Positions 7,938 to 48,004 of a DNA stretch of 64,000 bases are shown one piece after another. Each line of letters begins with the position of its first letter. Positions within the stretch are counted from its first letter, which is position 1. The notes under the pieces are model-generated. The model made no database searches, was not told where the DNA came from, and saw nothing but the letters and a program-made list of their open reading frames with translations. The stretch lies in the IMG/VR virus record IMGVR_UViG_3300006735_000001, positions 49,578 through 113,577 of that record; one strand, 5' to 3'. Both the position numbers and the translations under genes were made by a program. Origin of the DNA: a virus.

Positions 7938-7948
7938 ATAATAATATA

Positions 7949-8089
7949 ATGATAACAGAGCAAACTAATGGTAACACTCAAGTAAACACAGAGAGAGGAA
8001 ACTTCAATCAAAGAGTTTCTAAATTTAAGATGTTGGGTAAATCCAAGAAAGTCCAATGGGACGGTAAGAGAAGAAACAGAACAATTTAA
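7949..8089 (+). CDS. small basic ORF, 46 aa, between nrdB and nrdA
   Basis: MITEQTNGNTQVNTERGNFNQRVSKFKMLGKSKKVQWDGKRRNRTI fills the intergenic gap. Confidence 0.5.
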   Translation: MITEQTNGNTQVNTERGNFNQRVSKFKMLGKSKKVQWDGKRRNRTI

Positions 8090-8098
8090 ATAAAACCA

Positions 8099-11331: not shown

Positions 11332-12567
11332 TTATTTAAATGAAAAGTTTAAACCTATACTACTTTGGTATAACTCACTATCCCAGAATTTACCATATTC
11401 TCCTTCTATAAAGACACCAAAGTTTTTACTTAATTTCCATCCTAGATTGATACCTAGATTGTAATCTTCCCATTGTTCATGCTGTGAGTCTTCTATTAGT
11501 CCGCCTTTACCCCAGTTGTTTCTATTTAAATAACTAAAGTCCTCATCCCCAGTAATATATGTGTGATTGGGTAATATATAATTAGCATAAGCATGTAACC
11601 AAAATTTACTCTTATAATGATAGAAGTCAAAACCTACTATAGGTGCTATCTCTCCAAATTCACTAATAAGGTCCCATTGTTCATTATTATATCTATTAAT
11701 AAGATCTCTAAATACTGAATTTCTAAAATCTAAATCTGAGTATGCCACTATATTTCCGTCTGCATCTTTCCAAATCCAGTCTTGTCTTTCTTCACCTGTG
11801 GTCACATCCGTGTAAGTTGTATAATGATCTGTGTATCCATATTCAAAACCTAAAGAATACCATGGATTAATAGGGTACTCAACAACTTCACCTTCAGGTG
11901 TTGTAAATGTTTCTGTTTCATTCAACCATATTTCAATGGGGTTATATCCGTAAGCACGCTCATGAGTACGGTAGATAGCACCAGCTGAAATACTAAACTT
12001 TTTTCCAATAGGCAAGCGTAGTCTGGCCTCAGCAGACTTATAGTTTAGGTTAATACTTCCTACTTCTCTTGATTCAGCTTTAATTATATGATATTTACCT
12101 GTATGCTTAACAAATATTCTATGATTATTGAATTCTTCTCCACGGAGTCTTTCTTTTTCTATGTGAAACTGATACTCTAATCCTGCTAGAGCAGAGGTTG
12201 GTGCAGTAAATGCCAGTTGTTGTTCTGTACCATCATACCAATTTCTTGGTTTTCTTTCATAGCTAAATCTGGCCAGCTTTCTGATTCCAAATCCTATTCT
12301 ATAATCAAAGTCATAGTACTCTGTTACATCTACTACACGGGGTATACCATAAAGATCTCCTTCATCAGGTCTCTCTACAAAAAAGTCTTGTCTGCTTGTC
12401 TGATAGGAATTACGTGCATCACCTGCTGCATATACAGTTCCATACTGTAAAAAGTCTTGGTATAATGCCTTGAAGAACTTACCTTTTTCTTTTACTTCTT
12501 GTGAGTGAGAAGCATTAGGTAAAAACAAAAGTAGTATAAAAACCAACAGACTTAAATAGTTTTTCAT
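11332..12567 (-). CDS. predicted outer-membrane beta-barrel protein
   Basis: Sec signal peptide; alternating aromatic amphipathic strands; C-terminal YQSSIGLNFSFK beta-signal-like end. Confidence 0.65.
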   Translation of the reverse strand: MKNYLSLLVFILLLFLPNASHSQEVKEKGKFFKALYQDFLQYGTVYAAGDARNSYQTSRQDFFVERPDEGDLYGIPRVVDVTEYYDFDYRIGFGIRKLARFSYERKPRNWYDGTEQQLAFTAPTSALAGLEYQFHIEKERLRGEEFNNHRIFVKHTGKYHIIKAESREVGSINLNYKSAEARLRLPIGKKFSISAGAIYRTHERAYGYNPIEIWLNETETFTTPEGEVVEYPINPWYSLGFEYGYTDHYTTYTDVTTGEERQDWIWKDADGNIVAYSDLDFRNSVFRDLINRYNNEQWDLISEFGEIAPIVGFDFYHYKSKFWLHAYANYILPNHTYITGDEDFSYLNRNNWGKGGLIEDSQHEQWEDYNLGINLGWKLSKNFGVFIEGEYGKFWDSELYQSSIGLNFSFK

Positions 12568-30500: not shown

Positions 30501-32887
30501 TGATCCCATGCTCTGCTTTGTAATACTGCTCTTTTATAATCTTCTGATTCAGGTGGATATTGCGCTGGATTAAATAAATTAGGAAACTCATCTCTAAAGT
30601 TATTATAGTCAGTTTGCATTTCTTTAATGTTATCAATTTGATCTTGTAACTTTTCTCTTGCTTTCCCATTCTTAATTTGGGTGGGCGTAAAACCAAAACC
30701 AGCTTCATACAAAGCTTTATCATCTAACTGCATGAAATCTTTAATTTGATCAATAAACAAATGAGAAGTCCCAGTTTCAAAAATTGCATGAGCATTAGCA
30801 AATCTTGATTCATCTTGCATGTTTACAATATTATATAAATCTTCTTGCATCCTAAGATCATTGCTAAGTTGTTTTTGAAAAGTAAGATTAAACATTTTAG
30901 GATCAAAAACAGACAAAGGATCATTTGCCATATTGTCCCATGTATTATTAAGTGCATCTAATGCAGTCTGTACAGTTTTTTCTTTTGCATCTCTAAATTC
31001 TTGAAACGCTTCTTTTTGCTTTTCTGTTGCCAAACCTGTTAAACCAACTTGAGAACCACCGTACTTATATAAAGAAGGTATACCTTGAAATAAAAGCTTT
31101 TGTGGACCTTGTACAAAACCACCCATTAAAAACCCTGACATAAACACTTCAAAACCTTGACCAGAAAGTTGCTCTCCCATACCAGCCTTAATATTAGCTT
31201 TTCTTAAAGCCCATCCTCCTGATAAAGGATCATCTAATATAGCACTGTAGTACCCAGTAGTTGCAGCAGCTACCGCCTCTTGAGATACTTCTTGCACACC
31301 TTCTGCAATATTATTTGCAAAGTATCTTAATGATGAACTAGCTATTAACCCGGCACTTCCCCTAACACCTCCAGCTTTAACTCCATTCCACCATGCTGAA
31401 ATACCAGTGCCTCTATCTTTAAACATTTTACCTACATTAGGTAAACCTGTTTTAGGATTAATACTCTTTCTTGTTCTTAGAATTCTTTTACCTACATTTT
31501 GATAACCCTCTCTAATAGTCATACCCAATGTTCTTCTATAACCCCCTAAAGCATTGCCAAGAACAAACCAGTTACTTGCATAAATAATAGGTGCATTAAT
31601 CATCATAGTCTCAAATGCTGCTTCATGAGACTTAGATATAATCTCTTGCATATCTTTATCAGTGACAGTTTCACCTCTAGCTTCTCTTTTAGTTACTTCT
31701 GAGTTTACTAAATTATTAGCAACCATGCCTCCTTCAAGTCTACCTTCTGATACAGCAAGATTTACAGCACGTAAATCTCTATAGAACCCACCAAATAGTT
31801 TAGTAGTATTAGCAATGTTTCTTGAGTTTTGCGCAACTGTTTTAGTAGTATTCCATCTTTTGAGAGCAAATAAAGTATTAGGGGTAAACGCTTGTCCTAA
31901 AACTTTAGTGCCATTTATTGAACCTTGCCAAAAATTCTTTGCATTTTGAACATCTTTTAATTTTTTTAAAAATTTATTTGCATAAAATGAATTTTTTATT
32001 CCTTGACCAATAGTTTTTACTCCACGAAAAATATTCCAACCAGATCTTGCTACTGTTCCAGCTACAGCAGCACCTGCTGCGGGTGTCGTAGTCCCACCAG
32101 ATGGTATTGTACTTAATCCTAATGCTGAAGTACCTAATACCATTGCTAATTCTTCTACAGCTATAGATGCTATTATACCACCAGTATATGCACTATTTAA
32201 AAAAAAGTTATTAGCAAAACCACCAAAGCCTCCTCTAGTACTATTACCAACCATCATTGCCTCTTCAAATGCTTCTGCAGTTTCATCATCACCACTAAAT
32301 ACTGAATCCCAATCACCAGCCATTACATCTGCTGCAGTTCTATATGAACTCATAAATGCAGCACCACCTAAAGCTCCAAGCTCACCACTCATTCTAGATA
32401 GATCATCCATTATATTGCTATTAGCATTATAGTAAGTTTCCATATCAGCATATGGTACAAATCCTAAATTCTTATATTCTGGATGCTCATAATATCTTCT
32501 AAAATTACTTGACTTGACATCAAATGCAATAGGAGATACATTAATCTTTCCTTCACTTAAATCACCCTGCATTATTTGTTTTGAAGATTCATAACTACCT
32601 GGTTGAGGTGGTCTTGATTGAGAGTAAGGATCAAAATTTGTTGTTGCTGAGCCAGGTAAAGGATTTGAAATATTAGTAGTAGGAACAATAGAATACCTGT
32701 TTATCATTTCCTGAGCAGCTCTTACATTAGTAACGCCACCTGGATCAAGCATCATAGCATCAGCTCTATCCATATCTGGACTTTCAAACATGTCTTCTAT
32801 AGGAGTAAAAGTAAAATTACTTTGAGGTAATGTTTGTTCTAACTGATCTGTTTGTATAGATTGTTCTAAGCTATTTTGATTTAGCAT
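18578..32887 (-). CDS. virion-packaged RNA polymerase fused with zincin and an N-terminal hydrophobic region (4769 aa)
   Basis: AVRIPT..HS and AGSDHDGDK catalytic-loop motifs (~21530-21670); ADAQGY; YHEAFHAVY..EEYMSDEF zincin. Confidence 0.82.
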   Translation of the reverse strand: MLNQNSLEQSIQTDQLEQTLPQSNFTFTPIEDMFESPDMDRADAMMLDPGGVTNVRAAQEMINRYSIVPTTNISNPLPGSATTNFDPYSQSRPPQPGSYESSKQIMQGDLSEGKINVSPIAFDVKSSNFRRYYEHPEYKNLGFVPYADMETYYNANSNIMDDLSRMSGELGALGGAAFMSSYRTAADVMAGDWDSVFSGDDETAEAFEEAMMVGNSTRGGFGGFANNFFLNSAYTGGIIASIAVEELAMVLGTSALGLSTIPSGGTTTPAAGAAVAGTVARSGWNIFRGVKTIGQGIKNSFYANKFLKKLKDVQNAKNFWQGSINGTKVLGQAFTPNTLFALKRWNTTKTVAQNSRNIANTTKLFGGFYRDLRAVNLAVSEGRLEGGMVANNLVNSEVTKREARGETVTDKDMQEIISKSHEAAFETMMINAPIIYASNWFVLGNALGGYRRTLGMTIREGYQNVGKRILRTRKSINPKTGLPNVGKMFKDRGTGISAWWNGVKAGGVRGSAGLIASSSLRYFANNIAEGVQEVSQEAVAAATTGYYSAILDDPLSGGWALRKANIKAGMGEQLSGQGFEVFMSGFLMGGFVQGPQKLLFQGIPSLYKYGGSQVGLTGLATEKQKEAFQEFRDAKEKTVQTALDALNNTWDNMANDPLSVFDPKMFNLTFQKQLSNDLRMQEDLYNIVNMQDESRFANAHAIFETGTSHLFIDQIKDFMQLDDKALYEAGFGFTPTQIKNGKAREKLQDQIDNIKEMQTDYNNFRDEFPNLFNPAQYPPESEDYKRAVLQSRAWDHSRMLLMFTKNSMVRAAERAASINSRLQNEPLFKNMSASDLTVLTSKESLVKEMQILTDEISLLKAGEQTDKVKKDLAFKTKKLDLIAKFFTTIINPKNRTKDGKGPFDRRKMKTIEKPFQAYVQFLASQSQKDGLTQTFVDPTEVRKALIDIIDYTYLDGNIGIYNRALLYLMKPENFDEIYNRTLSVVEERFENNYETTKKNLEKYIDIQLANKLINELMSQEDVVVAGDESAEFLQTGDSSVLKNFFTQYGQINATNDKAKWLKIQAIIANYNRMVSKSDQAQNDAEVSEAEVSEVTNKEQEEILSDAGISVVLKKPNNTPMLNSLLNRSYNKYAALTSSKNEPVDSFNKWRSSEEAKLIQTTFNNIKKVWAQGYDSKDSEGNTFKITVSERQVTNEEGFAEFLLTREAIEDPIVQKLLSEAGLTLNDIIDDSDGAPVSKTARPANEGKGPFMQGTKFDVTKVDIDPEPYFELRDKNNNPLKEDVLSLLPKKFKGFIAGIYNTADSASDALNYLDSLMPDDSAYLFDGYTIHLGETVIDRDGQEWLVKSTPKMVSDKGRILLRKKEDNDKNPADVEPMRSVGLGNFRSEYTLQERDVQALTDDFAKLNFGKNVEIYPRVFDNEQSLPDKFSRAQRRLAVILSSLSAEEIQTLNLVIERDPKSGEIKGPYVIPTNPTLKKPNPQLIQAVSVYKIGFSLPLILLDKVNDKLQKENLGALEEGVVFGYVDNGNYAIKPTPESLGLDPRNITIKEVKNIINNATFPEGMQDNELVQSVQDMFTTNILIATQAGKLLGDNNKISISFDSEDMINFDIRTVLTGAIIDFDNVPKPVSELEYQFVNEEGDTFIFDVKRNKGQFKSINEITSVDNDPEFGVEERRKLIDDTVSGLKSQQIYEDKILNGTDRYYLIVKAPNGTYGFATLQAKQLTSDEFSQLAFDLIDQAEKKQEDNKGKTKVQQESSTFNNKFNDEIARDIFIKSNKGGYTVSIQVNPYGEVQMQLYDKNNKKDVATKTPKLTRDEVNDPKISVEAKLVTLISRLNEEIESTGVVITPAKFSKGFPEDATYDEILDKTTTKTATNVFKGQKVRLNANSAGIDAGRGVPDAANASGTFQMTEPYSGKPIGPVLQTPARTSNEAENSVLDITETEYTDMVEGNVPVPVAFLDQIAEVKRRGGEFSLREQGIYDTNSEIIDMKVAIAPNPTTASTNPNQKFDDVVSTVEKQIRALRDPVTGEVSDKNRAKFKSLTTQLYEAKSAARRGNSTQPLGTKTKGKDSNGDIIYLNSDEKAVEDKSIESYIKTIDKGIKNGKITLEKGREMVLKRITKDYDFSMDKMGIIVDYIQDRLDGSIPQVGNNKSSWLMFRDGKQPGLPVKQNNINIQIEELKVSLLEGVAPRDHFKTLQKNEEYQKLLKERDRQDKGLVNKILSGVFTPVFDDLDIVNINDFMMEAERILPDFISIEDIAVLGDNMKAGGVRVGAFQMYLNDLAGGLNVKGTIYTGAQNPFKYHEAFHAVYRLLLTPEQQKRLQSVARKEVRAKLRAEGKSFEKELQKFKNSANTYSDMSRKQLEKLYYEEYMSDEFDKFKINPRNTNTNTEVKSLFNRIIEFIKAFIDRFTTSQLQRTFEDIDAGKYKNASVVSNEFTESVLNDGPIIANALVPFKKIVVKDTEGFDYLDGNIADMIVRGIAASYLARSAKAELPYNPKDIFDEVVDDYQWLYSPNNEVNDLKTDEQKEKLKQIESAFLNYSTLIIEQADNLLEMITDKSVIQEENIDNVEDSVGVRTVSQYDLDASLIGGLKAIPSDVRKYIALTSVSEKDFFGNEYLTKGERIIVPVDFVDAFNSILKSTSNITNPLDFLKSMYFFGEDNVQGGAIVRKLLHDVGYSSESLLTDESFPAEIQNSSLLQSFINGFTNVRLDYLFVERSLAGDVRIYTASQKDDINSQLTRWQQAYYVAKRKLRADSNKTTNVINQIKDFDKALKGSNEMTDKALDKMSKAYSQDLYDNVGIKLSSLFIKVSLLQNRNGKTKKQKSLKKLYSDAKVIQDSGTGSDFSTMSLLSEQLQSNQDIFDEKGGILGRLRELSIANAPFDETVGATIHRNSNGDLVYAHQKPTFNLLFVNNLNNIDFYNNLLADPYKEQNFLLNSEAFKKMSQDRQIRMLRMEGSKVASGALSESNVEDGVSIDNTDYFRTQTYGNFSPKEFSLTQINLYTAFFNTKSGRVDTVIDSQGNESAIAPIFPKVMEASNTSELIGLPVIKTVEGSNAIITDETLDLFLDGIKNEFTRINRESNIDTATETVLGYNDVGGRGFSFFNNTTLLSQEFKNELSKVAYDQGQARNTISFDDAIKFTPYTLSQIREDIRTQLNNEYSDYVQYLIDENIYDEISKKVKDGLVVAEGVSRNNVNESSESLNLIPTNARYNLRQIFFNQKLNAAAFNEAQHGDQARLFKSSADITKRAKGNNNAGTPAYSEVIDTKKGILHTTDDISYILFEEPIENNIDIADAQGYTTVKGFRHLKFGTDSLSTGQAQLLDAMEDGLSESYQSSVYFGNEETPIGLVQDKDMVNSKKYAYFDGQKYLKFTITTLFKEYTSNLNPVTQVWEAKPGMLTLHNLRVAMEKIDASKDTITVAGPLSASKAEKMRVVPLSDINDNIGALEVLPHSTLSAKHMRLQQITPSNQLEGPDPTQIAEIITNIPVQFYKTKVPGLRDLNGDALDLKQIITAYNEVKTKKFKLSFNNKRNLIYEFESAVNDFNISNNTDITPKLAAFLKFAEKSLKAGKTSTNLLEFFSSVDGKQNYNLNNPITAPKFEQLFLNYFAKGVFSQKVPMVKLTLVSPFGVKKYRRVYDVEIVNGETIPTRSEIVRDKVFDRLGLTVEKDLQDLTPGNIPAKGYIVLDRLRVVPVYSNPKNPNSYTGERAMEMQMPAHHSSVRDLIENTNAPIPNVIARQFAVRIPTDDFHSSTPSLLVDFMPTAMGSVGMYAQELIEIAGSDHDGDKTFAHIKDFYVQDGVFKEYGKTKNKREEYLEYVRYSNRLVKAKGSQLQSVFELYSNNELDARIDSSPDSAVIDIATDPIDKQGGGMLLDTAKALAVLGLPISPAQYSEYKLKYGYPFEAPFNNQLLDYKFALVGNESMTTGNNPISYTPTSEEPINAALKLLEEKEQKIIGLDSNNYFRDKRADTPYDPSSFLGQAIAFQDNKGASIGASVLPNLYLSNLVEAGSEITDKTFTPIIDGITYNSFDPGSVEQAKINQDGKAAIVSMTVDNPTNRFVGKAGFNKHATSLAMNMLSLGMPMETIILLINTPTIRQVYKNASESNYSPYRVNKEIKKAFAVILNTFDDKKPSVPKLTSEMMSDYINANYNENLDPAEFYDVDLSILREFAKASRLQEFTNNMAAVTGLTKGLGKSMQNISRRKKQIEKLFDKDAPINLNKVFGPNTWHGTYIEGFNLLTNNLLPATFLRSSIDFQEILSLIADQMDLTNQATNEEMLDKISLDLLSYLTIKGYRNNMMENESHVVGGLTNDILYPSKQENIVDIVNRLKETPEGVDNDFLNGFLIVTDSKNSKSGLNLAEANTFRVMNSLMKVDLQNGFSRLYGSPNTRQDAMNLVSYMMVKDGLQIGYGTLLDAVNPYILNKYLSHVNTVNDALRGKQSIDTVFGQDIRSLINEFIKGYTVAAASNDKVFTLSSSDVGVSIEITPEGTQSLVVDWLEYYRDLGIEPIRNDKGFYRGPRLYSFNYLVQGEDGPTVSRAVAMEEWDVQDIQKKMTVTYSLESTKGSPRQNGIGFMFGDLISTNDLNKYRSENQKSSDIMPGESMAPISSYENAVKEMALKQQNSNITAVQGTPMQDSGIKVKLDPEAKETNIEDTAKLAEQISANSEAVEEDERQAYTIEDVDTSNPEMTDPQTSLFNELKLSLEEIYPVLYNFWTDTINPSAENRKIMRAQGAGTFKKFIGKFNDKNLKYESEQDYVEDVKKCILKK

Positions 32888-36308: not shown

Positions 36309-38837
36309 TTACATTCCCATCTTCCCAGTATAAAATGCTGGGTTTATAGCAAACTTTTTCATTTCGTTTCCATCCTTTGCTTCATCTGGTTCATCTGTTC
36401 TTTCTGCTCTATATCCAATAGGTGCTCCATATTCTTGACTATATACTTGTGCATTGTTCATATTAGCAGTATTCTGAGGTAACCCTCCAACCATATTTCT
36501 ATATAATGCATCAACTGTTTTATCGTCCATTGGTCTCCCTAAGTATTTTTCATATCTTTGGACTTTCTGAGCAAATGCAATTTCAGCATTTTGTTTAGGA
36601 TCTTCATAAGGTTGTCTACCTCTACCAGTAAACTCAATATCACCATATTGATCAGCACCAATCTTATACATATCATTAAGACTATTTAAGTTATATGTAT
36701 TTGATGCATTAGTTGCACCTACATTAAACAACTCATTAGCTTTCATTGTCTTCCAGTTATCCTCATTGTCTTTATTTTGTAAAGCAACTATAGTATTATC
36801 ATACAGACTTTTAGTTCTATCATTTTGTAGTTTATCATATTGCATTCCAAATTGAGGTGCAAGCATACCCACTTTATTCATAGTTTGAACATTTGCTTGA
36901 TTAACACCTGATATTGCTTTTGCATTAGCATCTAATGTTGTTCCTTGTATATTACTTCGTGCAATAGCTTGTGGTCCATAATTACCTAATGCATCAGCCA
37001 TAGTACCTTGAGCAGCTAAGTTTGCATTAATAATTGTAGTTGGATCATCTAGTACATAATCTATTTTACGTTCTTGTATTGGAGCTTGAAATGGTAAATA
37101 TAAGTTACTATCAAACATATTTAATGCTTGTAAATTATTTACATCTTGTTGCCACCATGGTTTTCCTGGATCATCTGACGGAATAACTGGAGGTATTTCA
37201 ATAGGTGCTTCAGGTCCTTTTATATTAAACTCATCACCAGGTTCAAAACCTACATTAAGTCTAGGAGTATTAAATGTATGCAAACCAAAGTCACCATCAA
37301 ATCCTCTACCCTTTTCCCAATTAGGATCATCTTTACTTAAGAAATATGGTACATATGGTATATTAGCTGCTAAAGCTTCTTCTTTTCTTTTTGCTTCTGC
37401 TGCTTTTTGAAATCTTAATACTTCCTTTTCGCTAGGGTCAGAATAGTTAAACCCCTCTTCTCCAAACTCAGCTTCTATTACATCACCCCATCTAGTATAA
37501 AAATCTTCTTTATTTTCTTCTAACAGAATGTCTTCAGACCCATAAATTTTAGCACCTTTAACTTTTCCTTGATCACGTGATCTTTTCCCTCCAGATAAAG
37601 AACCATACTTGTATTGTGCTTTATCAGATGCATCTATTACTTCACCTTGTAAACTAATGTCTTCATTATATATATCTACTGCAGTACTATCAGGTCTTAA
37701 CCTAGTAGGTACTCTACGTTCAGAACCTGATCCACCTGGAAACTTACCTTTAGGAGCTAATTTAAAATTATAATTATTAGTTGCTGGATCATATGTCATT
37801 ACATAACCTTTACTTATAGCATCTAAATATTTTTTTGTGTTAACTGGATCACCAACAAATGGGTTTTCTTGTATAATAATATCAGTGTTATCAACCTCTT
37901 CAGGTGACTCACCAGCAGTTTGATATCTTGGTATAAAAGTCTCTAGACCATTCTTAGCCATATTCATCATACTTGTATCAGCTTGAGCAAGTTGTGCTTG
38001 ATTAGCAGAAAACTCTGGTGGCCCTTGAGTCCCTTGAGCTACTGCACCTGCTTGATTTTCTTGAGCCATCATGTTTTGCAACATCTGTATCATATTTTGT
38101 TGCTCTGTAGGTAATTGTTGAATTGCATTTTCTCTAGCTTGAGCTTGACTAATACCTTCTACCTGTGAAGTAAACTCTAAAGGATCAATACCTTGCCCCA
38201 ATAAATAAGGGTGTGCGATTAAAGGAACACCATCATCAAAGTTCTTTTTAGCTTCTTGCATAAAACCAAGTTTAGATAAATCATTCATATTCTTTTGAAT
38301 CATTAATTCTGCACTTCTGGTAGATATATCATCAGCAAACTGAGATCCTATTTCTGCATAATAATCATTTAGATTAAACTTCTGTGATATTTTAGCAGGA
38401 GTCTTTCTTGAACCACCCATATCAAACTCTGACATTTCTTCTTTTGTAAATTTTAATTTTGGTGTATCAGAATATATAAATGACTGTTCTGGTAAGAACA
38501 TAGGTACACCCCCTTGAGAATGTCTTTTACCACTTATATTATATAAACCAAATTTTCCATCATCATTTAAATCTGTCAAAACTGTTTCTCCACCTTCTGC
38601 TTCTACATTAGCAACATCTCTTGGAACTTTTGATAAACTGTATCTTACACTTTTATCTTGTTCATTATTAAAAGATGTACTTCCATAGTACTCTTGAGGA
38701 GTTGTAACCAAACCATAATTAGCTTGATCACCTGTTACATATACGTCACCACCTTGTTGCATAACTTGATCTTCAACAACTTTGCCGTTAACCAATTTAA
38801 ATCCTTCAGGTAATTTATTTATTTTTATTTTTGCCAT
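36309..38837 (-). CDS. virion-region protein (842 aa) with NVEAEGGE..GKRHSQGG domain
   Basis: Motif recalled from crAss-like structural/cargo proteins; Q/N-rich helical C-terminus. Confidence 0.55.
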   Translation of the reverse strand: MAKIKINKLPEGFKLVNGKVVEDQVMQQGGDVYVTGDQANYGLVTTPQEYYGSTSFNNEQDKSVRYSLSKVPRDVANVEAEGGETVLTDLNDDGKFGLYNISGKRHSQGGVPMFLPEQSFIYSDTPKLKFTKEEMSEFDMGGSRKTPAKISQKFNLNDYYAEIGSQFADDISTRSAELMIQKNMNDLSKLGFMQEAKKNFDDGVPLIAHPYLLGQGIDPLEFTSQVEGISQAQARENAIQQLPTEQQNMIQMLQNMMAQENQAGAVAQGTQGPPEFSANQAQLAQADTSMMNMAKNGLETFIPRYQTAGESPEEVDNTDIIIQENPFVGDPVNTKKYLDAISKGYVMTYDPATNNYNFKLAPKGKFPGGSGSERRVPTRLRPDSTAVDIYNEDISLQGEVIDASDKAQYKYGSLSGGKRSRDQGKVKGAKIYGSEDILLEENKEDFYTRWGDVIEAEFGEEGFNYSDPSEKEVLRFQKAAEAKRKEEALAANIPYVPYFLSKDDPNWEKGRGFDGDFGLHTFNTPRLNVGFEPGDEFNIKGPEAPIEIPPVIPSDDPGKPWWQQDVNNLQALNMFDSNLYLPFQAPIQERKIDYVLDDPTTIINANLAAQGTMADALGNYGPQAIARSNIQGTTLDANAKAISGVNQANVQTMNKVGMLAPQFGMQYDKLQNDRTKSLYDNTIVALQNKDNEDNWKTMKANELFNVGATNASNTYNLNSLNDMYKIGADQYGDIEFTGRGRQPYEDPKQNAEIAFAQKVQRYEKYLGRPMDDKTVDALYRNMVGGLPQNTANMNNAQVYSQEYGAPIGYRAERTDEPDEAKDGNEMKKFAINPAFYTGKMGM

Positions 38838-38839
38838 AA

Positions 38840-41386
38840 TTATAACATTTCTATATCAGCACCAGCAGCTATTAATTTAGCTAACATTGCCGGCCCTACA
38901 TTTACAGTTTGACTATTTATACTACCACCTCTTTTTGATGTTCTGGTTGATCCTTGATTTAAAAATAAACCAGTAGTTGCATCATCCTCTGAACCAAACA
39001 TAGAATCATTTACTGATAAACCTTTACCTTTAATAAAAGGAGGAGCTTGTACATTAAACTGGCTATCTGCACCAGTTTGATTAAATAGATTTACATATGC
39101 ATCATCTTTATCCTTATCACCAAAAATTACATCATTTACTACACTTGAACCTACAACACCAAACGCACCCACATCCTCAAAAGTTTTCATAGCATTACTA
39201 TTATATACATCTTTTGCTAAACCACTTAAAGATGTATCAGGATTAAAAGTAAACTTTGCTGGATTAATATTTTGACCAGGATTTACTTGTGCTAGTTGTT
39301 GATCTGTTTGATTATTCAAACTATCTACTATTGCTTGATTATTTTCTTCTAATGGTGTAGAACCTAAATCTGGAAACCTATTTTGTAAAAATGCATCTGC
39401 TACATCTTGTGTATCTTGCATATAGTTTGTCATTCCTTGATTATTAAATAATGCGGAAAAGTCAATATTGGTTTGTGCTTTAGGTAAGTCATTACCACCA
39501 TACTTTCTTTTCATTATTTTATCTTGTACAAAGTCAGGTAATGCACGGAATCCTTCATTATCTGGTTCACCACCTTTTTCAGCTTTATTCATAGATGCTT
39601 TAATAGCTGCATCTTTTCTTGCTAAATATACATCTTCTCCTTTAGGTCCACCATATTTCATATAACCCATCTTGTTACGTACTTGTCTTGGTAACTTACG
39701 TAAACCTTTACCTTTTTTTCCTGATGGTGTTTGTTTTAGTTGACCACCAAATTTTACTTCTTCTTCTATTTCTTCTACCTTAACATCTTCTATGTTAATA
39801 GGAGTATCTACATCATCAGTAATAATATTTTTAAGAGCCTTCTGCTCTTCAGCTTTACTACGTTTTTTTTCATAGTAATTTCTATATAGTTTTCCTATGC
39901 CACTACCTATATCATCTCCTAGTCCATCAAAGAAAGGTACTGCATCATCATTTATAAAACTCTTTACATCTTGCCCTATATTTTTTGCGTTTTCTTTTTG
40001 AGTATTTAACCAATTATTAAAGTTTGCTCTTTTATTTGCTGGTATGTTAGATAAATCAAAATTAGAAAATACACTAGGATCTATATCAGTACCTGCTTTA
40101 AGACTTTCATTTATATAATCTTGTATAGCTTTTTGATTAGCTGGAGATACATCTATCTCAAAATCAACAGATCCTCTGGTAACTCTATCAATATCATTTA
40201 AATTTTTCTTTTTTCTCCAATCTCTAAATGTACCATCTGCAGCACCGTCACCATTTTTATCATCAGAACCAAAAAACATATCATTGGTATTACTTAAAAA
40301 GTTATAAATTCTTCCTAAGTTATTCATAGAGTTGTCTGGAACAGGGTTGTATTTATAACCTTTTTTTGATGCATCTCCTGGTTCTTGTTCATATAAAATA
40401 CTACCATCTAATGCTTTTACATAACCGTCAGATATATTAGGTCCAAAAAATTTAGAGTAATCTATATCATTTAAATTCTTAAATGTAGAATTGAAAGCAC
40501 CTGCACCGGTTGTACCCTGAGTACCTTGAGTACCAGCAATAACATCATCAATCATACTATTAGATTGTCTGTCAGTATTAGAGTTATTTCTATTAGCACT
40601 TGAAATACCAAATGCATTACCCAATGCTTCAAAAGCAGCCGCATATTTTGGATCTAAATCAGGACGTTTTGCATATACATCTTCTGTATCTTGTTTGTAA
40701 TCTGTTTTTCCTTGATACTTATCAGTATACTGCTGAGGAGTAAGACTCTTAATAAAGTCCATATTTATATTAAACTGAGCTTTAGGTAACCCTTCACCAC
40801 CTTCTTCTCTTTTAAACTTAGCAGCATTCTTTGCAAAATTAGCCATCTTTACAACAGCAGGAGAATATTTCTCCTTATTTGCCATAACCTTCTTAGCAGC
40901 TTCTTGAACGCCCATACCACGTGCTTTAGCCCATCTAGTAAACTTACCTCTATTTTTCTTTTTAATTTCTATACCTGATTTAGCTTCATCCATCATTGGA
41001 TCTATTTCGTCTAACACAGGTAACTTATCTTGATCACTTTCTATATATTGCTCTCTACTAAGTTCTTGAGGATTTTGATTTATTTCTTCTCCTGTTGGAT
41101 CAGCAGGTCTCTGCATCTTTTCAACATTCTTAAATATAATCATTATGTCTTCTTCTTGCATTCCAGATACCATCATTGCTTGTGCAAGACTTTGTTGGTC
41201 TACCTGCTTCTCCATTAACATCATTACAACTTCTTCAGGTTTTTTACCTTGTTGTATAGACATCATAAAAAAATCACTTATTTGTTTAATTTGTGGATCA
41301 ACTTGTGGTGGATTTGGTTGCATACCTGGTTGCTCAGGAATCATCTGTCCACCTTGTTGTTTTAAACTTTTTTTGTTTAGATGCAT
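38840..41386 (-). CDS. modular virion-region protein (848 aa) with many xxGG-delimited mini-modules
   Basis: Modules IKKKNRGKFT..ANFAKNA, GLRKLPRQVRNKMGY and GFRALPDFVQDKI, each flanked by GG motifs. Confidence 0.55.
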   Translation of the reverse strand: MHLNKKSLKQQGGQMIPEQPGMQPNPPQVDPQIKQISDFFMMSIQQGKKPEEVVMMLMEKQVDQQSLAQAMMVSGMQEEDIMIIFKNVEKMQRPADPTGEEINQNPQELSREQYIESDQDKLPVLDEIDPMMDEAKSGIEIKKKNRGKFTRWAKARGMGVQEAAKKVMANKEKYSPAVVKMANFAKNAAKFKREEGGEGLPKAQFNINMDFIKSLTPQQYTDKYQGKTDYKQDTEDVYAKRPDLDPKYAAAFEALGNAFGISSANRNNSNTDRQSNSMIDDVIAGTQGTQGTTGAGAFNSTFKNLNDIDYSKFFGPNISDGYVKALDGSILYEQEPGDASKKGYKYNPVPDNSMNNLGRIYNFLSNTNDMFFGSDDKNGDGAADGTFRDWRKKKNLNDIDRVTRGSVDFEIDVSPANQKAIQDYINESLKAGTDIDPSVFSNFDLSNIPANKRANFNNWLNTQKENAKNIGQDVKSFINDDAVPFFDGLGDDIGSGIGKLYRNYYEKKRSKAEEQKALKNIITDDVDTPINIEDVKVEEIEEEVKFGGQLKQTPSGKKGKGLRKLPRQVRNKMGYMKYGGPKGEDVYLARKDAAIKASMNKAEKGGEPDNEGFRALPDFVQDKIMKRKYGGNDLPKAQTNIDFSALFNNQGMTNYMQDTQDVADAFLQNRFPDLGSTPLEENNQAIVDSLNNQTDQQLAQVNPGQNINPAKFTFNPDTSLSGLAKDVYNSNAMKTFEDVGAFGVVGSSVVNDVIFGDKDKDDAYVNLFNQTGADSQFNVQAPPFIKGKGLSVNDSMFGSEDDATTGLFLNQGSTRTSKRGGSINSQTVNVGPAMLAKLIAAGADIEML

Positions 41387-41396
41387 TTTGCTAGAG

Positions 41397-41416
41397 TTAT
41401 ATTAATAATATACAAA
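41397..41416 (-). promoter_or_regulatory. putative phage late promoter, copy 3
   Basis: TTTGTATATTATTAATATAA. Confidence 0.6.
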
Positions 41417-41446
41417 TAATTAAGGAATTTCACTAATCTTTTAGGT

Positions 41447-44400
41447 TTAAGAATTTCCTATGACATGTGTCATAACATAATTAGGTATAGACATATTTGC
41501 TAATTTAGCTGATTTATAATTCTTCCTATTAAGTTTATCATATACTCTTTGAGCTTGTTCTTTTGAACCTCCTTCTTTATATATACCCTTAATGTAGTTT
41601 GTATAAATTTTATTCATAGATCTTAAAGGGCCTCCTTTTTGTTTAAAATATTCTATAATATCATTATACTTAGGATTAATAATAATATTTTCAAACTCAT
41701 CATTAAATTTAGAGTCCTTCCTCTTTAAGATTTTATTAATATAATCACTTGATTCATTATTTATAGAGTCTGTCCAATCTGTAGAATTATATATATCTAT
41801 ACCTTTATTTTTTAATTTTGTTATTGAATTTTTTGCACCAGTTGGACCAGCATTATATGCAAATAAAATTTTAGCCAAAACAGATTCATCATTACCTTGA
41901 TTTAAATAAGGTCGTTCACTTAAATAGTTCATCCATTTTTTTTGTGCTGGGATAGCCTGATTTATATCATATGGATCAAAATCATCACCTACTATTTTTA
42001 AACGTTGCATTTCTTCAATAGTTATAGGTGTAAATTGTGCAACACCTTTAGCATCCTTTTTAGATGTAGCATTTGCATTAAAAGATGATTCTTTAAATAA
42101 TTGTCTTAATAATAAATCATTACTTATAATTGGTGCACTGTTCTTTGTAATAATTTGTGCTCTGCTTGGTGTAGAAACGGGACCTCCTTCTTGATATTTC
42201 TTTTGTTTTATATTTAAATACTTAGAATTCTTTAATGCATTCCGTGTATAGGCATCTCTATTAGGATCACTACTACTAGTTCCTGCATATAATCTTGGTA
42301 AATCTTCTATGGCTACATTACCACCTTCTCTGTTATTACGCAAGTATGCTAAAATACCTACTGTACCTAATGCAGCTTTTTTTGGATCATCAAAGTCTTC
42401 ACCACTTGTTATACCTAAACTAGCTAATGATTTTACTAACTCAGGTTCCTTTAGTATTTGACCCCATCTAACTTGTGTTAATCCCATACTAGCATTATTA
42501 GGATCAGATATACCTACATTATCAAGTAAATTATTTACATTTCTTTCTGCTTTATAGTCTGCACTTCCTCTAGGTCCTATTTTTAAACTATCAGGTAAAT
42601 CTAAATTATCAATAGCTTTATCATAAAGAGATGATCCAAATTTTAGACCAGCTCTTACAGTATTACCTATTGCACTATGTGTATCTCCAAAACCTGTTTC
42701 ATTTCCAAATATACCAAAAGCTAATCCCGCTAAATCATTATATACATCACCATTAACTTTTAAATTTTTCATTACAAGTTGTTTATTATCTTGCAGTGAC
42801 TTAGCAAAAGGTACTACTGTATTATTGTATTCTTCATCATCGTCACCAAAAAAATCAGTTTCATTAAATTGATCTTCTTTAAATTTATCATCTATAGATA
42901 CTTGTATAGGTTTATAGTTTAAAGTATTAACGGTTCTATTTATTCCTTGCCCTTTTTGTATATTACCTCTATCATCTTCATATTCTAAATAATCATTTCT
43001 TTTAGAACCAGCCTTAAAATTTAATTGACCATTTTCAAATACAAACTTATTTCCCTCATCTTCTGGTAGTATAAATACTTCAGAGCTTTGTTGCAAATAA
43101 TCTGTCAATACATTTAAACTGCCTTGATTACATCTTATGCAACCATTAGATACTCTACTGTTATCATCATCAATATATCCTGCATGAAGTGAGGTTCCTA
43201 CATTTTGACCAGATTCATTAGATAAATTAAAGCTAGGTAAATCCATATAACCAGCTCTGTTTATATTAGATATTTTATATCTTCCTGCTCCTGTCATTTT
43301 ATTACCAGCTGACCAATCAATATTATCTGGTGATATTTCATCTTGACTAATAGTACCATCTTGATTTATATCTACATATTTTGTAACTGTTTGAGCATCA
43401 CCCATAACTGCACCTAAATCTACAGGAGCACTATAAATAGGTTCATTTGGATTATTACCTGGCTCATAGACATGCATCAATCCGGATTGTTTATCTACTA
43501 TTACATAAGGTTTATTATTATTTGATTGATTCTGAAAGTTAACAATCAAATCAGCTTGACTCATTTTATTAAATTCATTAGCCCTATTTTTTACATCAGC
43601 AATATCTTCATACTCATCTATATCTACAACATCAGTAGAACTATATGGACTAGCAACCAATTCATTTTGAACTTGTATATCTTGTGCTTCTCTTTGTCTT
43701 AATCCAGCATTTGTCATATCTTCATCAGATGGATTAAACTCTTCACCTTTTAGATTTGTTCCATAGTTTTTATTATTATAATTAAATATTTTATTAGGAC
43801 CATAGTAATCTCTTGCTATTCTAAATGCAGAATTAAAATCTTGTGCACCATTAATTCTATCATCAACTTCTACTACACTTAATGTAGAAAGAGGTGTATC
43901 AGCAGTATTAGATGGAGGTAAATTAGTAGATGGCGTAGGTTTAAATTTATTAGGATTATCTAATAACTCTGATCTTAACTTCATATTTACATCATAACTA
44001 CCATCAGTTAATCCTTGTTCTTTAGCAGCTGACCATGGAGTTCCAGTAACATTTTCCCAAATATCACTTACTGCACCACCTTGTTGTGCTTTAGGTAATG
44101 TTTTAATCTTACCGTTCTCAGTTCTAGCATATCTATTATTTTCATTTTCCATGCTAGGAATGAGTGTGCCTGAATAAGTTTTACCTTTCCATTGCCAGCT
44201 TACTGATCCACCTTCTTTAAAACCTAATTTGTTTTTCCAGTAATTTGGTATATTTTTAATACCTTCCATAGAGATGTCTATATCATTAATGGGAATACCA
44301 GTCATCTCTGCAAAACTATCAACATCAGAAAGCCCCTCAACCTGAGGAATAAATTGAGCTCTTTCATTATATAATCCTTTTAATACATTTGGTATTGTTC

Positions 44401-47400
44401 CTTCTGGTAGATTATCATATATATCTTTTATATCATTACCTAGTTTACCTAATCTATTTTTTGCCATTTGAACTCTACCTGTACCAGGTTTATCACCACC
44501 AGGAAGAACATCTGATAAAAATACATCAAGATCAGCCAATGTTTTATTTCCTAATCTTTCAAAATATGCAGGATTATTTCTATTTTTTATTGCTTTTATT
44601 GCTGTAGGATTTTGTAATACTGTTTCTACTGCATTATTTATTTCATTTCTATCTAAACCATCTAAATAATTTGTGAGAAGATTAATGGTGTCACCACTAA
44701 GATCTACTTTTGCTTCTTCTTTTACTAATTTTGCTAACCCATCAAATCTACTTGTCCTTTTTCCTTTTACACTTCCTGGAACTATTTTATCACTATAATT
44801 TTCTAAAATATTATCCATAACAAAATTAGGATCAGTAATACCCCCTCTACTATTTTCTGGTGAATTAGGATCCATACCTAAGGCCAAACATACTCCAGTA
44901 GCACAATTAGAATCTAAAAAGTCATAATTATATATGCTGTTATCCTCCAATGATAAAGGAAGTTTAGTTGTGTTCATTCTTAAATTACTATGAATAGAAC
45001 TTCTTTCAGTACCTTCAAATAATTGTGCTTGATCTACAAAACCTTTTATTTCTTCATCAGATAAATCTAAATCTAAAACTCTTACCTCATTTTTCCCTTT
45101 ATAATCTTTTTCACTAACACGCTTATTTCCTGAACCAGTTGACCATCTATTTACACGGCCAACTAAATCAGTACCAGGTATTTGATTTACTTGATCACCT
45201 GTATCAGTATTAATTAGTACAGCTTCAATATGTCCAGGACTAAACTTTTTACTTCCATAAGGATATTGTATAACTCTTACATTATATTTTGAATAATCTA
45301 TTTCTTTACCGTCTTGAGCCATATTCCAACTTACTAAACCACCTTCTTTTTGTTGGTTTAATCCCGCTGCTCCTATAATAGCTGGAGGTGCAATAGCAGG
45401 AAAAGCTTTATTATTCATTAATTTAGATAACTTTGGATATGTTGAAGGATCTAAAAAATCTAATAATCTAGTATTACTAAAAAAACTATCTGAAAATCCA
45501 GGATTCTTCTCAATTAAACCAGCAGGTCTTGCAGAAAAACTTTTTTTTGCTGCATTTAATATGCTAGGGGTTATTTCATCATATATGTTATTTATTAAAC
45601 CCCTCTCTAGCATACTTCTCCTTAGTTCAACAGCAAAAGGTATAGGTTCATCTCCTATATATCCTTGTCTAGGGTTAGGACTTCCAGTTGCAAAGTAATC
45701 ATAGTCACTTGTTAATTGTTTACTTCCAGTATTGATCTTAGCTTTGTTCAAACCAAAACCAGTACCAGAAGACAAATCTAATTTAGTATTAACTAAATCG
45801 TTAGGTTTAAGTACTCTGAATTCATCACTCAAACCTATAGGTCTGTTAGCATTAAATAAATGTCCAATTTCATGATCTAAAGTAGTATTAAGACTTTTAC
45901 CACTAAACATAGGGCCTACACCTATAGTTCCTTTTCCAGGTTTAAGACCTAATCTAGTTGTAAATGAATAATCTCCTGACATAGGAGAACTTCTATTTAC
46001 AGTTATTACATCACCCACTGTACCTCCAGCACCTGGATTCCTAAAATATGCATTAGTAAATAAACCTTGATTTTCACTTATAAAATTTTTTGCTATATCA
46101 TAGTATTCACTAGAAGGATTTCCTGCACCATCATTAAACATATTACGTGCATGATGATTAATGGTATTTCCTTTTAAATTTGATAATTCTTGATATCTAG
46201 CTAATGCTGCTGATTGAGCTGCATCATCTAATGTAGTACCTGCTGGCGGAACATAACCAGATGCTTTTAAATGATTTAACTCTTGATTTGCTAGTCTATT
46301 AAAACCTTCTGATCCAGGTTTAATCTCATCTAGTCTCATTGTTATAAAATTATCTATTTCATCAGCATTTCTACCTAACATTTCTAAACCATCTGTTAGA
46401 TCAGGATTACTACCAGGTGTAGCGTCAAAGATCCTATCTCTTACACTTTTTATTTTTTGCATGTCTACATCTACAACATCATCAAAATTAGTAGGTGAAA
46501 TACCTCTGTCATTAAATTGATTTATTTGGATTCCTCTACCACTTGTAGAAGCTCCTGTAAAATATTTACCTGCATTAAGCGCTGGTATACCCATAGATAA
46601 AGCATCAAGCCCTACTGTAGCAGCATTACCCAAAGTAGGGTTATCAATAAACTGTTTTGTGTCGGGAGCTATATTACCTGCTCCATATACAAAACCTACT
46701 CCATCTAATGTTTGACCAACAGTAGCTCCAGTAGAAATTGGTCTATAGTTCATTGCTTTAGAAAAAGGTTGCCCTATATACTTAGAAGCAAATCTTCCCG
46801 CAGGACTGTTAGCTAAGAATCTTAATCCTTGTGGTACTCTACTAAGTCCTCCTACTGCACCCATTCCCATTCCTAATACAGGAGCTGTTGCTGCTCCAAT
46901 AATATTCATAGTATTCATCTGCATTGCATCTCTCTTCTGCAGCATGTCATTCCACTGCGGTCTGAAAAACTCATCCATTGTATAATCCCCAAGGGCTGTT
47001 CCTCTTTGATAGTTTCTCCCATACTTTTGGTTGTATTCCTCTAGAGTCCCTTTGAAAGGTGAATACCACCAATCTGGATCATTTTCTAAATATTCAGGTT
47101 TCTCATACTCATACTGATATATATCCTTTCTTCCCCTACCTGTATTTAATAATCGTGAAACTACATTTCCATCTTTATCTGAGTCACGGAAGGCTGTGTC
47201 TTTTTTTCTTTTTGGTGCACTTAAAACAATTTCATCTAAATCATAACCATCAGTTGTCATTTTAGTTGGTATAACCCCTTCTTCTAATTCTACTGTTTCA
47301 CCAGCAGTCTGCATTTTTGGTAGTTTTAGATATTCAGGTCGGTTTGGTTCTCTTCCAAACAGTCTATCATAATAATTTTTATCATAAAGCTCTCTAGTAT

Positions 47401-48004
47401 ATTCTGATGGAGTGTATCCTCCATCTTCTGCCCATGTACCACCTGTATACCCGTCTATATTATGGTATTTAGACTGATTACTAAATGTTGGATGATTTGG
47501 TTTTTTCCATTTATCACTTCCATGATTATCCTCATCCATTTTCATATAGTCACCAGACTTCCAAAAACCTTGAATATCATATGCTCCAAGATCCATTGTA
47601 ATATCTCTACCCTGTCTTTTAGATTCAGAAGTTACCCAAGCATCATATTTAATTTTTTCTTCTTCTGTAAGTGGTGTATTATACTTTTCTTTAAATATCA
47701 TTTCAGGGTCACCACCAACTTGAGCCATAGGTACTTCAACAACATAGTCTGCATCTTTGAAGTTATAATTTAATTCTCCAGGTTTCATATCCTGAACCAT
47801 ACCATTATTTCCATATCCCCTAACTGGAAAGTCTACACCTTCCATAGTAATATTATTTGACTCAATAATATTAAACGGATTGTTTACATCAGGGCTATCT
47901 GATTTATATCCTTCTACAGATATGTATTGTGTTATATTCTGTAAGAACTCATTAGGTCCACCCGGAAGCCCTCTTCTTTCTGTTTTTGAATAACTTTTTT
48001 TCAT
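41447..48004 (-). CDS. multi-enzyme protein (2185 aa): zincin, permuted papain-like peptidase, L,D-transpeptidase, lytic transglycosylase(s)
   Basis: HEIGH; PGHIEAV..YDFLDSNCAT; IVDKQ..SLHAG..RVSNGCIR; ESSFNANATS.KDAKGVAQF..FAYNAGP. Confidence 0.75.
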   Translation of the reverse strand: MKKSYSKTERRGLPGGPNEFLQNITQYISVEGYKSDSPDVNNPFNIIESNNITMEGVDFPVRGYGNNGMVQDMKPGELNYNFKDADYVVEVPMAQVGGDPEMIFKEKYNTPLTEEEKIKYDAWVTSESKRQGRDITMDLGAYDIQGFWKSGDYMKMDEDNHGSDKWKKPNHPTFSNQSKYHNIDGYTGGTWAEDGGYTPSEYTRELYDKNYYDRLFGREPNRPEYLKLPKMQTAGETVELEEGVIPTKMTTDGYDLDEIVLSAPKRKKDTAFRDSDKDGNVVSRLLNTGRGRKDIYQYEYEKPEYLENDPDWWYSPFKGTLEEYNQKYGRNYQRGTALGDYTMDEFFRPQWNDMLQKRDAMQMNTMNIIGAATAPVLGMGMGAVGGLSRVPQGLRFLANSPAGRFASKYIGQPFSKAMNYRPISTGATVGQTLDGVGFVYGAGNIAPDTKQFIDNPTLGNAATVGLDALSMGIPALNAGKYFTGASTSGRGIQINQFNDRGISPTNFDDVVDVDMQKIKSVRDRIFDATPGSNPDLTDGLEMLGRNADEIDNFITMRLDEIKPGSEGFNRLANQELNHLKASGYVPPAGTTLDDAAQSAALARYQELSNLKGNTINHHARNMFNDGAGNPSSEYYDIAKNFISENQGLFTNAYFRNPGAGGTVGDVITVNRSSPMSGDYSFTTRLGLKPGKGTIGVGPMFSGKSLNTTLDHEIGHLFNANRPIGLSDEFRVLKPNDLVNTKLDLSSGTGFGLNKAKINTGSKQLTSDYDYFATGSPNPRQGYIGDEPIPFAVELRRSMLERGLINNIYDEITPSILNAAKKSFSARPAGLIEKNPGFSDSFFSNTRLLDFLDPSTYPKLSKLMNNKAFPAIAPPAIIGAAGLNQQKEGGLVSWNMAQDGKEIDYSKYNVRVIQYPYGSKKFSPGHIEAVLINTDTGDQVNQIPGTDLVGRVNRWSTGSGNKRVSEKDYKGKNEVRVLDLDLSDEEIKGFVDQAQLFEGTERSSIHSNLRMNTTKLPLSLEDNSIYNYDFLDSNCATGVCLALGMDPNSPENSRGGITDPNFVMDNILENYSDKIVPGSVKGKRTSRFDGLAKLVKEEAKVDLSGDTINLLTNYLDGLDRNEINNAVETVLQNPTAIKAIKNRNNPAYFERLGNKTLADLDVFLSDVLPGGDKPGTGRVQMAKNRLGKLGNDIKDIYDNLPEGTIPNVLKGLYNERAQFIPQVEGLSDVDSFAEMTGIPINDIDISMEGIKNIPNYWKNKLGFKEGGSVSWQWKGKTYSGTLIPSMENENNRYARTENGKIKTLPKAQQGGAVSDIWENVTGTPWSAAKEQGLTDGSYDVNMKLRSELLDNPNKFKPTPSTNLPPSNTADTPLSTLSVVEVDDRINGAQDFNSAFRIARDYYGPNKIFNYNNKNYGTNLKGEEFNPSDEDMTNAGLRQREAQDIQVQNELVASPYSSTDVVDIDEYEDIADVKNRANEFNKMSQADLIVNFQNQSNNNKPYVIVDKQSGLMHVYEPGNNPNEPIYSAPVDLGAVMGDAQTVTKYVDINQDGTISQDEISPDNIDWSAGNKMTGAGRYKISNINRAGYMDLPSFNLSNESGQNVGTSLHAGYIDDDNSRVSNGCIRCNQGSLNVLTDYLQQSSEVFILPEDEGNKFVFENGQLNFKAGSKRNDYLEYEDDRGNIQKGQGINRTVNTLNYKPIQVSIDDKFKEDQFNETDFFGDDDEEYNNTVVPFAKSLQDNKQLVMKNLKVNGDVYNDLAGLAFGIFGNETGFGDTHSAIGNTVRAGLKFGSSLYDKAIDNLDLPDSLKIGPRGSADYKAERNVNNLLDNVGISDPNNASMGLTQVRWGQILKEPELVKSLASLGITSGEDFDDPKKAALGTVGILAYLRNNREGGNVAIEDLPRLYAGTSSSDPNRDAYTRNALKNSKYLNIKQKKYQEGGPVSTPSRAQIITKNSAPIISNDLLLRQLFKESSFNANATSKKDAKGVAQFTPITIEEMQRLKIVGDDFDPYDINQAIPAQKKWMNYLSERPYLNQGNDESVLAKILFAYNAGPTGAKNSITKLKNKGIDIYNSTDWTDSINNESSDYINKILKRKDSKFNDEFENIIINPKYNDIIEYFKQKGGPLRSMNKIYTNYIKGIYKEGGSKEQAQRVYDKLNRKNYKSAKLANMSIPNYVMTHVIGNS

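Follow-up and report, generated by a model that had tools for sequence, protein, structure and literature searches.

Three neighbouring late genes of a marine crAss-like phage carry a short Gly-Gly peptide motif, here called the seam, at the borders of their protein modules. The genes lie on the minus strand of a stretch of 64,000 nucleotides (the window), which corresponds to positions 49,578 to 113,577 of IMG/VR virus record IMGVR_UViG_3300006735_000001; the record is a complete genome of 113,577 bp with direct terminal repeats, and the window is its late-gene half. The encoded proteins of 2185, 848 and 842 amino acids (aa) are probably all carried in the phage particle. The motif is real, it is nearly restricted to these three genes in the 113.6-kb genome, and it marks where modules, or cassettes, were exchanged. 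We infer that the seam acts as a hinge and is not cleaved. The reading favoured here, to which we give about an even chance, is that of an uncut hinge doubling as a recombination seam.

A junction motif nearly restricted to three genes

The seam consists of two halves, [K/M]-x-x-G-G and hydrophobic-P-[K/M]-[A/M/F]-Q-x-[G/A]-G, which are often paired, for example in KRKYGG-ND-LPKAQ. In some variants the first G is replaced (MAKSG, MAQDG, QTAG). A preliminary description of this DNA had listed a set of motif copies, every one of which is present at its given place, and had proposed the consensus K-[AMYF]-x-x-GG. The latter has three matches against 0.41 expected, but it is too narrow, the true consensus being looser.

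Enrichment was observed directly by counting patterns in the three proteins (3875 aa) and in the rest of the window (16,778 aa), with expectations taken from shuffles. The pattern P[KRM][AMY]Q occurs six times in the three proteins (0.22 expected) and nowhere else in the window, and [KRQ][KQEYFAM][KQEYF]GG five times (0.56 expected) with one occurrence elsewhere. The looser K.{1,2}GG is found ten times (4.3 expected) and ten times elsewhere. Bare GG is not enriched, with 29 occurrences against 29.7 from shuffles and 92 elsewhere in the window. These patterns were picked after looking at the data, and replication was therefore sought in the whole genome and in related loci. Among the 99 open reading frames (ORFs) of the genome, the three genes hold six of the seven PKAQ-type matches and seven of the eight strict KxxGG matches. 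In 44 related IMG/VR loci, the density of PKAQ..G per 1000 aa is 0.83 in 2185-aa-like and 0.46 in 848-aa-like proteins against 0.13 in other ORFs, and that of [KM]xxGG is 1.68 and 4.88, respectively, against 0.81. The two families are thus 2-6 times denser in these patterns, and most matches counted under other ORFs belong to mis-binned family members. Overall, the 842-aa family shows no enrichment, with PKAQ..G at 0.04 per 1000 aa, less than in other ORFs, and [KM]xxGG at 1.16 against 0.81.

Hundreds of relatives bear the motif. With redundancy removed, which leaves 453 contexts, the motif persists, with a weak consensus of 0.15-0.26 bit per position around GG. The window's four other giant proteins, of 4769, 2132, 1969 and 1116 aa, show no cargo-type motif context. 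The 4769-aa ORF (window 18578-32887, minus strand), a putative RNA polymerase fusion, contains 23 GG sites, none of them in such a context.

Conserved ends and exchangeable cassettes

The 35 orthologues of the 2185-aa protein, ranging from 406 to 2276 aa, have only their two ends in common, which we call handles (Table 1). A module homologous to the N-terminal handle, with GG on both sides, is found in unrelated large phage proteins, and the C-terminal handle aligns with three further proteins (P0243, P0246, P0247). The 2276-aa protein (L006:3110-9940) has a divergent N-terminus (MALTPGKAKKMLDDGTVHGRGLTDKQKRYFGAIAGG...) and still matches handle searches. All internal segments are optional: each is present in 1-15 of the 35 orthologues, and one segment in none. 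A single 2185-aa chain holds segments with a HEIGH zincin signature (2/35), a permuted NlpC/P60 domain, a YkuD-like domain, a lysozyme-like domain (12/35) and an SLT lytic transglycosylase (Pfam SLT, E 1e-8; PHROG 669 and 342).

The His-before-Cys domain, found in 3 of the 35 orthologues, directly follows NMAQDG. Its AlphaFold2 model, with a predicted local distance difference test score (pLDDT) of 80, confirmed the predicted assignment of this enzyme-like domain to the permuted papain-like/NlpC-P60 superfamily. The best fold matches (VIA) are TseH (Z 8.1), YiiX (7.7), MARTX RID (7.7) and 3kw0 (7.4), all remaining rows having Z of 5.3 or less; the sole PPPDE-like structure in the list, CLN5, has Z 3.8. 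In 15 sequences the motifs PGHIE, NRW and NCAxGV are invariant, as are H36 and C145, the histidine preceding the cysteine. The domain has a weak match to Lnb_N (E 0.007) and none to PF05903 (Peptidase_C97) at E<=1.

The 848-aa family, with more than 555 relatives, follows the same plan on a smaller scale. Its N-terminal part ends with ...FAKNAAxWKKEEGG, its C-terminal part reads GG-x-VNVDxxMLAKLIAAGADIEML, and the mini-modules between them each end with x-x-G-G. The C-terminal helix is preceded by GG in at least 98 of 120 relatives, and its residues L838, A841, G842, A843, I845, E846 and L848 are invariant. The 842-aa family (more than 896 relatives) is conserved at about 45% identity over the whole length, and its relatives' copies of the variable region hold cassettes in common with the 848-aa family.

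With 60 relatives as input, AlphaFold2 modelled the 848-aa protein (mean pLDDT 55) as confident islands separated by low-confidence linkers. All ten motif copies lie in stretches of pLDDT below 50, which make up 51% of residues, and because of this location none of the copies is taken to be buried. Three copies directly follow helices: 176-190 leads into KREEGG, 585-599 into KAEKGG and 619-625 into RKYGG. A Foldseek search of this model against the PDB gave no match to any solved chain, and a sequence search of solved structures was unhelpful. The IKxxNRGKFT...ANFAKNA module (window 40796-40972; L081:5995-7725; L082:11988-14516) is common to the gut crAss-like phages cr127_1, cr50_1 and cr108_1 and to crAss001 gp45; it also matches BK063667, a virus record assigned to Methanofastidiosa. 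Its cr127_1 copy is annotated as a putative endolysin/lysozyme and its cr50_1 copy as a transcriptional regulator; these annotations differ and therefore probably do not describe the module itself.

The borders of homology blocks coincide with the seam. In the 848-aa family, 20.4% of BLAST block ends fall within 2 residues of GG, against 5.8% for random positions, and in the 2185-aa family 10.3% fall within 3 residues of the motif, against 1.4%. Compared with random places, blocks begin or end 2 to 7 times as often at the motif. The three-cassette block of the 2185-aa protein is 79% identical to part of P0243 over 415 aligned columns; it begins 2 residues past NMAQDG and stops at LPKAQQG, the flanks on both sides being unrelated.

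Mobility of cassettes was also observed at the DNA level. The Tudor-like cassette of 44 residues, present in 4 of the 35 orthologues, has DNA identity of 93% and 90% to copies located elsewhere in the proteins of two other loci, L005 and L002, and in all three it is framed as xxGG|SVSW...TLPK[AG]QxG. In L002 it stands directly after the N-terminal handle (PIAKSGG|SVSW...); in L005 it follows an extra 185-residue cassette inserted at FQEGG. Exchange extends across families. A block of 185-220 residues ending with ...MQDGG is shared, at 70-77% identity, by the 842-aa-family protein P0142 and the 848-aa-family proteins P0007, P0014 and P0087, and cassettes common to these two families end at ...MQDGG or ...MEMGG. 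Another cassette of about 290 residues (GYGCTSYGCG...SGGSGxAHTMIF), which looks CHAP/NlpC-like by its sequence motifs, is common to the 2185-aa and 848-aa families (L043:7253-9940, aa ~360-650; P0013, P0016 and others). Non-orthologous large phage proteins as well as gut crAss-like phages contain the same mini-modules, with the same punctuation at their flanks. DNA microhomology at the seams amounts to only 12-15 shared bases and is no more than suggestive. The proposals of the preliminary description that the motif marks module boundaries and that unrelated modules are shuffled as cassettes are thus borne out: the block borders coincide with it, its copies in the 848-aa protein sit in linkers, and modules were gained, lost, reordered and exchanged at it, within a family and among the three genes.

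Table 1. Features of the three putative cargo proteins, with positions in the window
Feature	Position	Strand	Remarks
2185-aa putative cassette-carrier cargo protein P0001	41447..48004	-	ORF; Pfam SLT, weak YkuD; PHROG
N-terminal handle, aa 1-98, ends PMAQVGG	47711..48004	-	35/35 orthologues (ending PMAQxG)
PMAQVGG, P0001 aa 92-98	47711..47731	-	motif copy
PKMQTAG, P0001 aa 229-235	47300..47320	-	motif copy
HEIGH zincin signature, aa 711-715, in optional cassette ~aa 501-889	45860..45874	-	weak Reprolysin_3, E 0.12
QQKEGG and NMAQDG, P0001 aa 884-899	45308..45355	-	motif copies
His-before-Cys domain, aa 900-1075, predicted circularly permuted NlpC/P60 (papain-like) fold	44780..45307	-	
Three-cassette block, aa 901-1309, motif copies at both borders	44078..45304	-	common with P0243
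GFKEGG, P0001 aa 1261-1266	44207..44224	-	motif copy
Tudor/SH3-like mini-cassette, aa 1267-1310, between FKEGG and LPKAQQGG	44075..44206	-	
YkuD-like cassette, aa 1499-1645	43070..43510	-	Pfam YkuD E 0.0014, under curated cut-off; 12/35 orthologues
KYQEGG, P0001 aa 1936-1941	42182..42199	-	motif copy
SLT lytic transglycosylase cassette, aa 1960-2070, between KYQEGG and KQKGG	41795..42127	-	15/35 orthologues
KQKGG and YKEGG, P0001 aa 2121-2146	41567..41644	-	motif copies
C-terminal handle, aa 2126-2185, begins after KQKGG, includes YKEGG	41450..41629	-	35/35 orthologues
848-aa putative cargo protein P0002	38840..41386	-	N-terminal part and C-terminal helix conserved, mini-modules between them variable
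13-residue N-terminal leader ending KQQGG	41348..41386	-	K/N-Q-x-GG in at least 90/120 relatives (pattern match)
Mini-module IKxxNRGKFT...MANFAKNA, aa 139-197, between EAKSG and KREEGG	40796..40972	-	invariant columns
LPKAQ after KREEGG, aa 200-204	40775..40789	-	
Mini-module run with VKFGG, MKYGG, KAEKGG, RKYGG, LPKAQ, aa 544-638	39473..39757	-	
SKRGG and conserved C-terminal helix ...MLAKLIAAGADIEML	38843..38938	-	
842-aa putative cargo protein P0003	36309..38837	-	conserved over full length
MQQGG, aa 26-30	38748..38762	-	M, G, G invariant in 120/120 relatives
Variable region, aa 270-330, with MAKNG, PRYQTAG	37848..38030	-	
EAKDG near C-terminus, aa 819-823	36369..36383	-	

A possible hinge, cleavage site or docking handle

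On the minus strand, the order of transcription is 2132-aa, 2185-aa, 848-aa, 842-aa, 1116-aa, 4769-aa and 1969-aa proteins. The 2132-aa protein matches PHROG 37948 (virion structural protein) and the 2185-aa protein PHROG 342 (internal virion protein with endolysin domain). The counterpart order in crAss001 is gp44, then the cargo proteins gp45 and gp46, followed by the polymerase-associated gp47, gp49 and gp50 (PMC10172136). Because their gene position matches this order, the 2185-, 848- and 842-aa proteins are regarded as putative cargo (ejection) proteins, which would be packaged in the particle and ejected from it. Delivery into the host together with DNA is suggested by the position of the genes next to virion genes and by the name of PHROG 342. 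Searched by tblastn in 50,697 phage records, the 842-aa protein had no match, and therefore no cultured close relative was found. Elsewhere in the window, two plus-strand ORFs of 326 and 541 aa (6957-9724) break the minus-strand block; from the look of their starts, they may be ribonucleotide reductase subunits. A 411-aa protein (11332-12567, minus strand) with a signal-peptide-like start (MKNYLSLLVFILLLFLPNASHS) and an outer-membrane beta-barrel-type end (...IGLNFSFK) may be a phage-encoded porin-like protein.

According to the favoured explanation, the three genes would encode virion cargo proteins arranged like beads on a string. A conserved handle at either end would enclose a variable series of cassettes that fold independently, some of them cell-wall-acting enzymes, others mini-modules of 20-65 residues. 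Each module would be closed off by its seam, in the form of a basic helix cap plus a flexible Gly-Gly hinge that stays uncut, allowing each bead to dock, unfold and thread the portal and tail separately. Because every cassette bears the same ends, the seam would at the same time provide in-frame joints, at which cassettes could be swapped, inserted, deleted and reordered by recombination, both from one phage to another and among the three genes.

A close parallel is gp45 of crAss001. It occupies the same gene slot, after a muzzle-type gene and before RNA polymerase genes, is of comparable length (842 vs 848 aa), and contains 21 GG sites and a GG-flanked copy of the shared mini-module (IKxKNxGKFT...FAxNA, aa 375-428). 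Two of its pieces were resolved by cryo-electron microscopy (PMC10172136). Residues 214-245, located in the tail barrel, lie between the GG sites 209/210 and 263/264, and residues 425-552, located on the portal, between 427/428 and 562/563, an arrangement that by analogy fits modules joined by flexible seams. The seams of gp45 differ in being mostly aromatic-GG and in lacking the PKAQ half, and a search of the present genome at E<=1 gave no match to the portal-binding domain PF25725 (crAss_CARG1), although a divergent form could have been missed. Neither seams nor processing are discussed in the crAss001 structure paper (Bayfield et al. 2023, PMC10172136).

Several points weigh against an uncut hinge. 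A plain hinge needs no fixed P, K/M, A or Q, nor an M-x-x-GG invariant in 120 of 120 relatives; conservation of residues beyond the needs of a hinge therefore points to recognition by some partner. In all three proteins a conserved GG is located within the first 30 residues, as in a leader, and the weak GG consensus of 0.15-0.26 bit per position fits a hinge but also low-specificity protease sites such as those of T4 or phiKZ. Low pLDDT in the variable regions may partly stem from a thin alignment. Since the relatives are not independent and the border percentages count cells, not events, these figures exaggerate how many events took place. Whether the gp45 chain is intact is not evident from the crAss001 data, and for the present phage the evidence is made up of sequences and predicted structures.

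Some of these points would suit true polyproteins, in which the seam is cleaved after G-G or after the Q of PKAQ and separate effectors are released. An unrecognised phage protease or a host protease would then cut in the capsid or after ejection. We consider this rather unlikely. It would agree with a sequence-specific motif placed in exposed linkers at module borders, with a leader-like conserved GG 12-30 residues from each N-terminus, and with two peptidase-type cassettes within the 2185-aa protein, one right after NMAQDG; cleavage might also spare 12 gp45 chains threading the crAss001 portal. Similar ideas have been published: the account of polyvalent proteins proposes processing of multi-domain phage proteins by embedded zincins (PMC5512222), and cleavage of fused polymerase polyproteins was suggested in crAss-like phages (bioRxiv 10.1101/2020.03.07.982082).

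The complete genome, on the other hand, has no match at E<=1 to the Pfam peptidase families C5, C48, C39, C97, S78 and S77, although a divergent enzyme could be missed. The His-before-Cys domain was considered as a dedicated GG protease and rejected; its fold is confirmed, but only 3 of the 35 orthologues have it, and its best structural match, TseH, is a type VI secretion effector and not a GG peptidase. The zincin was likewise rejected as a general processing enzyme, its segment being confined to 2 of the 35. Because both are optional cassettes, neither can be the general processing enzyme of a motif that is present everywhere. The first G of the motif is often replaced (AG, DG, SG, NG), and the 4769-aa putative RNA polymerase fusion, a type of protein suspected of cleavage in the literature, lacks the motif.

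Further evidence against cleavage comes from published crAss001 MALDI peak lists (PMC6235969 supplement), which were matched by peptide mass to in-silico digests. Band 3 matched gp50 (51 of 97 peaks) and gp47 (48 of 97), and band 4 matched gp49 (47 of 68) and gp44 (19 of 68). Provided that band numbering starts at the top of the gel, bands 3 and 4 correspond to 270 and 150 kDa, respectively, and the giant cargo proteins would accordingly be full length. The protein gp45 was not located in the gel bands, having 3-5 matches per band, which is the level of noise, in lists that do not include bands 11-13. Band 5 is dominated by masses that we take to be those of keratin, and some of the gp45 matches fall on such masses. 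As for the polyproteins cut at GG that the preliminary description had envisaged, the sequences offer no positive evidence for such cutting and neither show nor exclude it. That the seam peptide is a maturation signal, cut by an unrecognised phage or host protease in the capsid or after ejection, seems doubtful; if it were so, crassvirus cargo genes would be true polyproteins delivering changeable sets of effectors, with handles used only for loading.

Recognition by a partner could also mean that the seam serves as a handle for docking or loading. It would then be a short linear motif to which a repeated site in the particle (portal, tail rings, capsid interior) or a packaging chaperone binds, so that any motif-bearing cassette would be loaded and held in order. 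We regard this as unlikely. The handles are kept in all orthologues while the cargo varies, the motif is limited to cargo genes, its conserved residues exceed the needs of a hinge, and short pieces of gp45 dock separately on the tail rings, muzzle and portal of crAss001, in 6 or 12 copies (PMC10172136). Yet it is the modules between GG sites that are resolved as docked, whereas the GG stretches are for the most part not resolved, and the information content of the motif is low.

A seam without function of its own, as a remnant of one ancestral mini-module duplicated many times or as an effect of composition, would account for the many copies in a few module families (NNPGFKALP...MGG, AYLANRD...KGG, ...GYTHDAPKAQTGG) and for the unenriched bare GG, but it is very improbable and largely refuted by the shuffle controls (5-6 copies observed vs 0.2-0.6 expected) and by conservation of the same junction in 120 of 120 relatives, the motif moreover flanking unrelated folds (SLT, permuted NlpC/P60, Tudor-like, helical modules) and surviving redundancy removal in 453 contexts.

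Known systems and implications

The prohead proteases gp21 of T4 and gp175 of phiKZ cut short consensus sites in internal virion proteins. Their motifs are of low information, N-terminal targeting pieces are involved, a recognisable prohead protease is encoded, and the capsid protein is also cut. The seam is similar as a short, low-information motif recurring in putative internal virion proteins, but S77 and S78 have no match here and the motif is missing from other structural proteins. In adenovirus and African swine fever virus, proteases of clan CE leave G-G at the ends of mature virion-protein pieces. The present phage differs in having no C5 or C48 match, in the register of hydrophobic and basic residues, and in the bacterial nature of its host. 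In polymorphic toxins, the peptides VENN (CdiA) and PxxxxDPxGL (Rhs) mark the border of carrier and cassette and act as a point of recombination. They resemble the seam in being short conserved peptides between a constant carrier and exchangeable cassettes; polymorphic toxins have one such border, before the C-terminal toxin, whereas here there are many borders, two handles and no toxin-immunity pairs.

Polyvalent proteins of phages and conjugative elements (Iyer, Burroughs, Anand, de Souza, Aravind 2017, PMC5512222) combine many unrelated domains, including zincins and cell-wall enzymes, in highly variable architectures and are predicted to be delivered with DNA. The 2185-aa protein likewise unites several unrelated effector domains in one chain of variable architecture among its 35 orthologues. 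The searched text of that paper describes no conserved junction peptide or N- and C-terminal handles and does not mention crAss phages; peptidase cassettes are, in addition, optional in the present phage family. In the literature on proteolysis of crAss cargo and on crAss-like polyproteins, we found no description of a junction peptide, conserved handles or cassette exchange. The preliminary description had known of no earlier account; this holds for the motif, not for the idea of polyproteins, which had already been proposed for such proteins.

Set out here for this genome are a census of handles and cassettes, the reordering of one cassette at the DNA level, the optional nature of both embedded peptidase-like domains and the assignment of crAss001 bands. 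Crassviruses rank among the most abundant phages and package and eject protein amounting to several megadaltons. A seam that delimits each module gives a rule for parsing unannotated cargo proteins into units, and it explains how new enzymes slot into an injected carrier. If the seams are cut, they would represent a new system of virion maturation; if they are uncut, they would be a natural plug-and-play linker with which phages deliver proteins.

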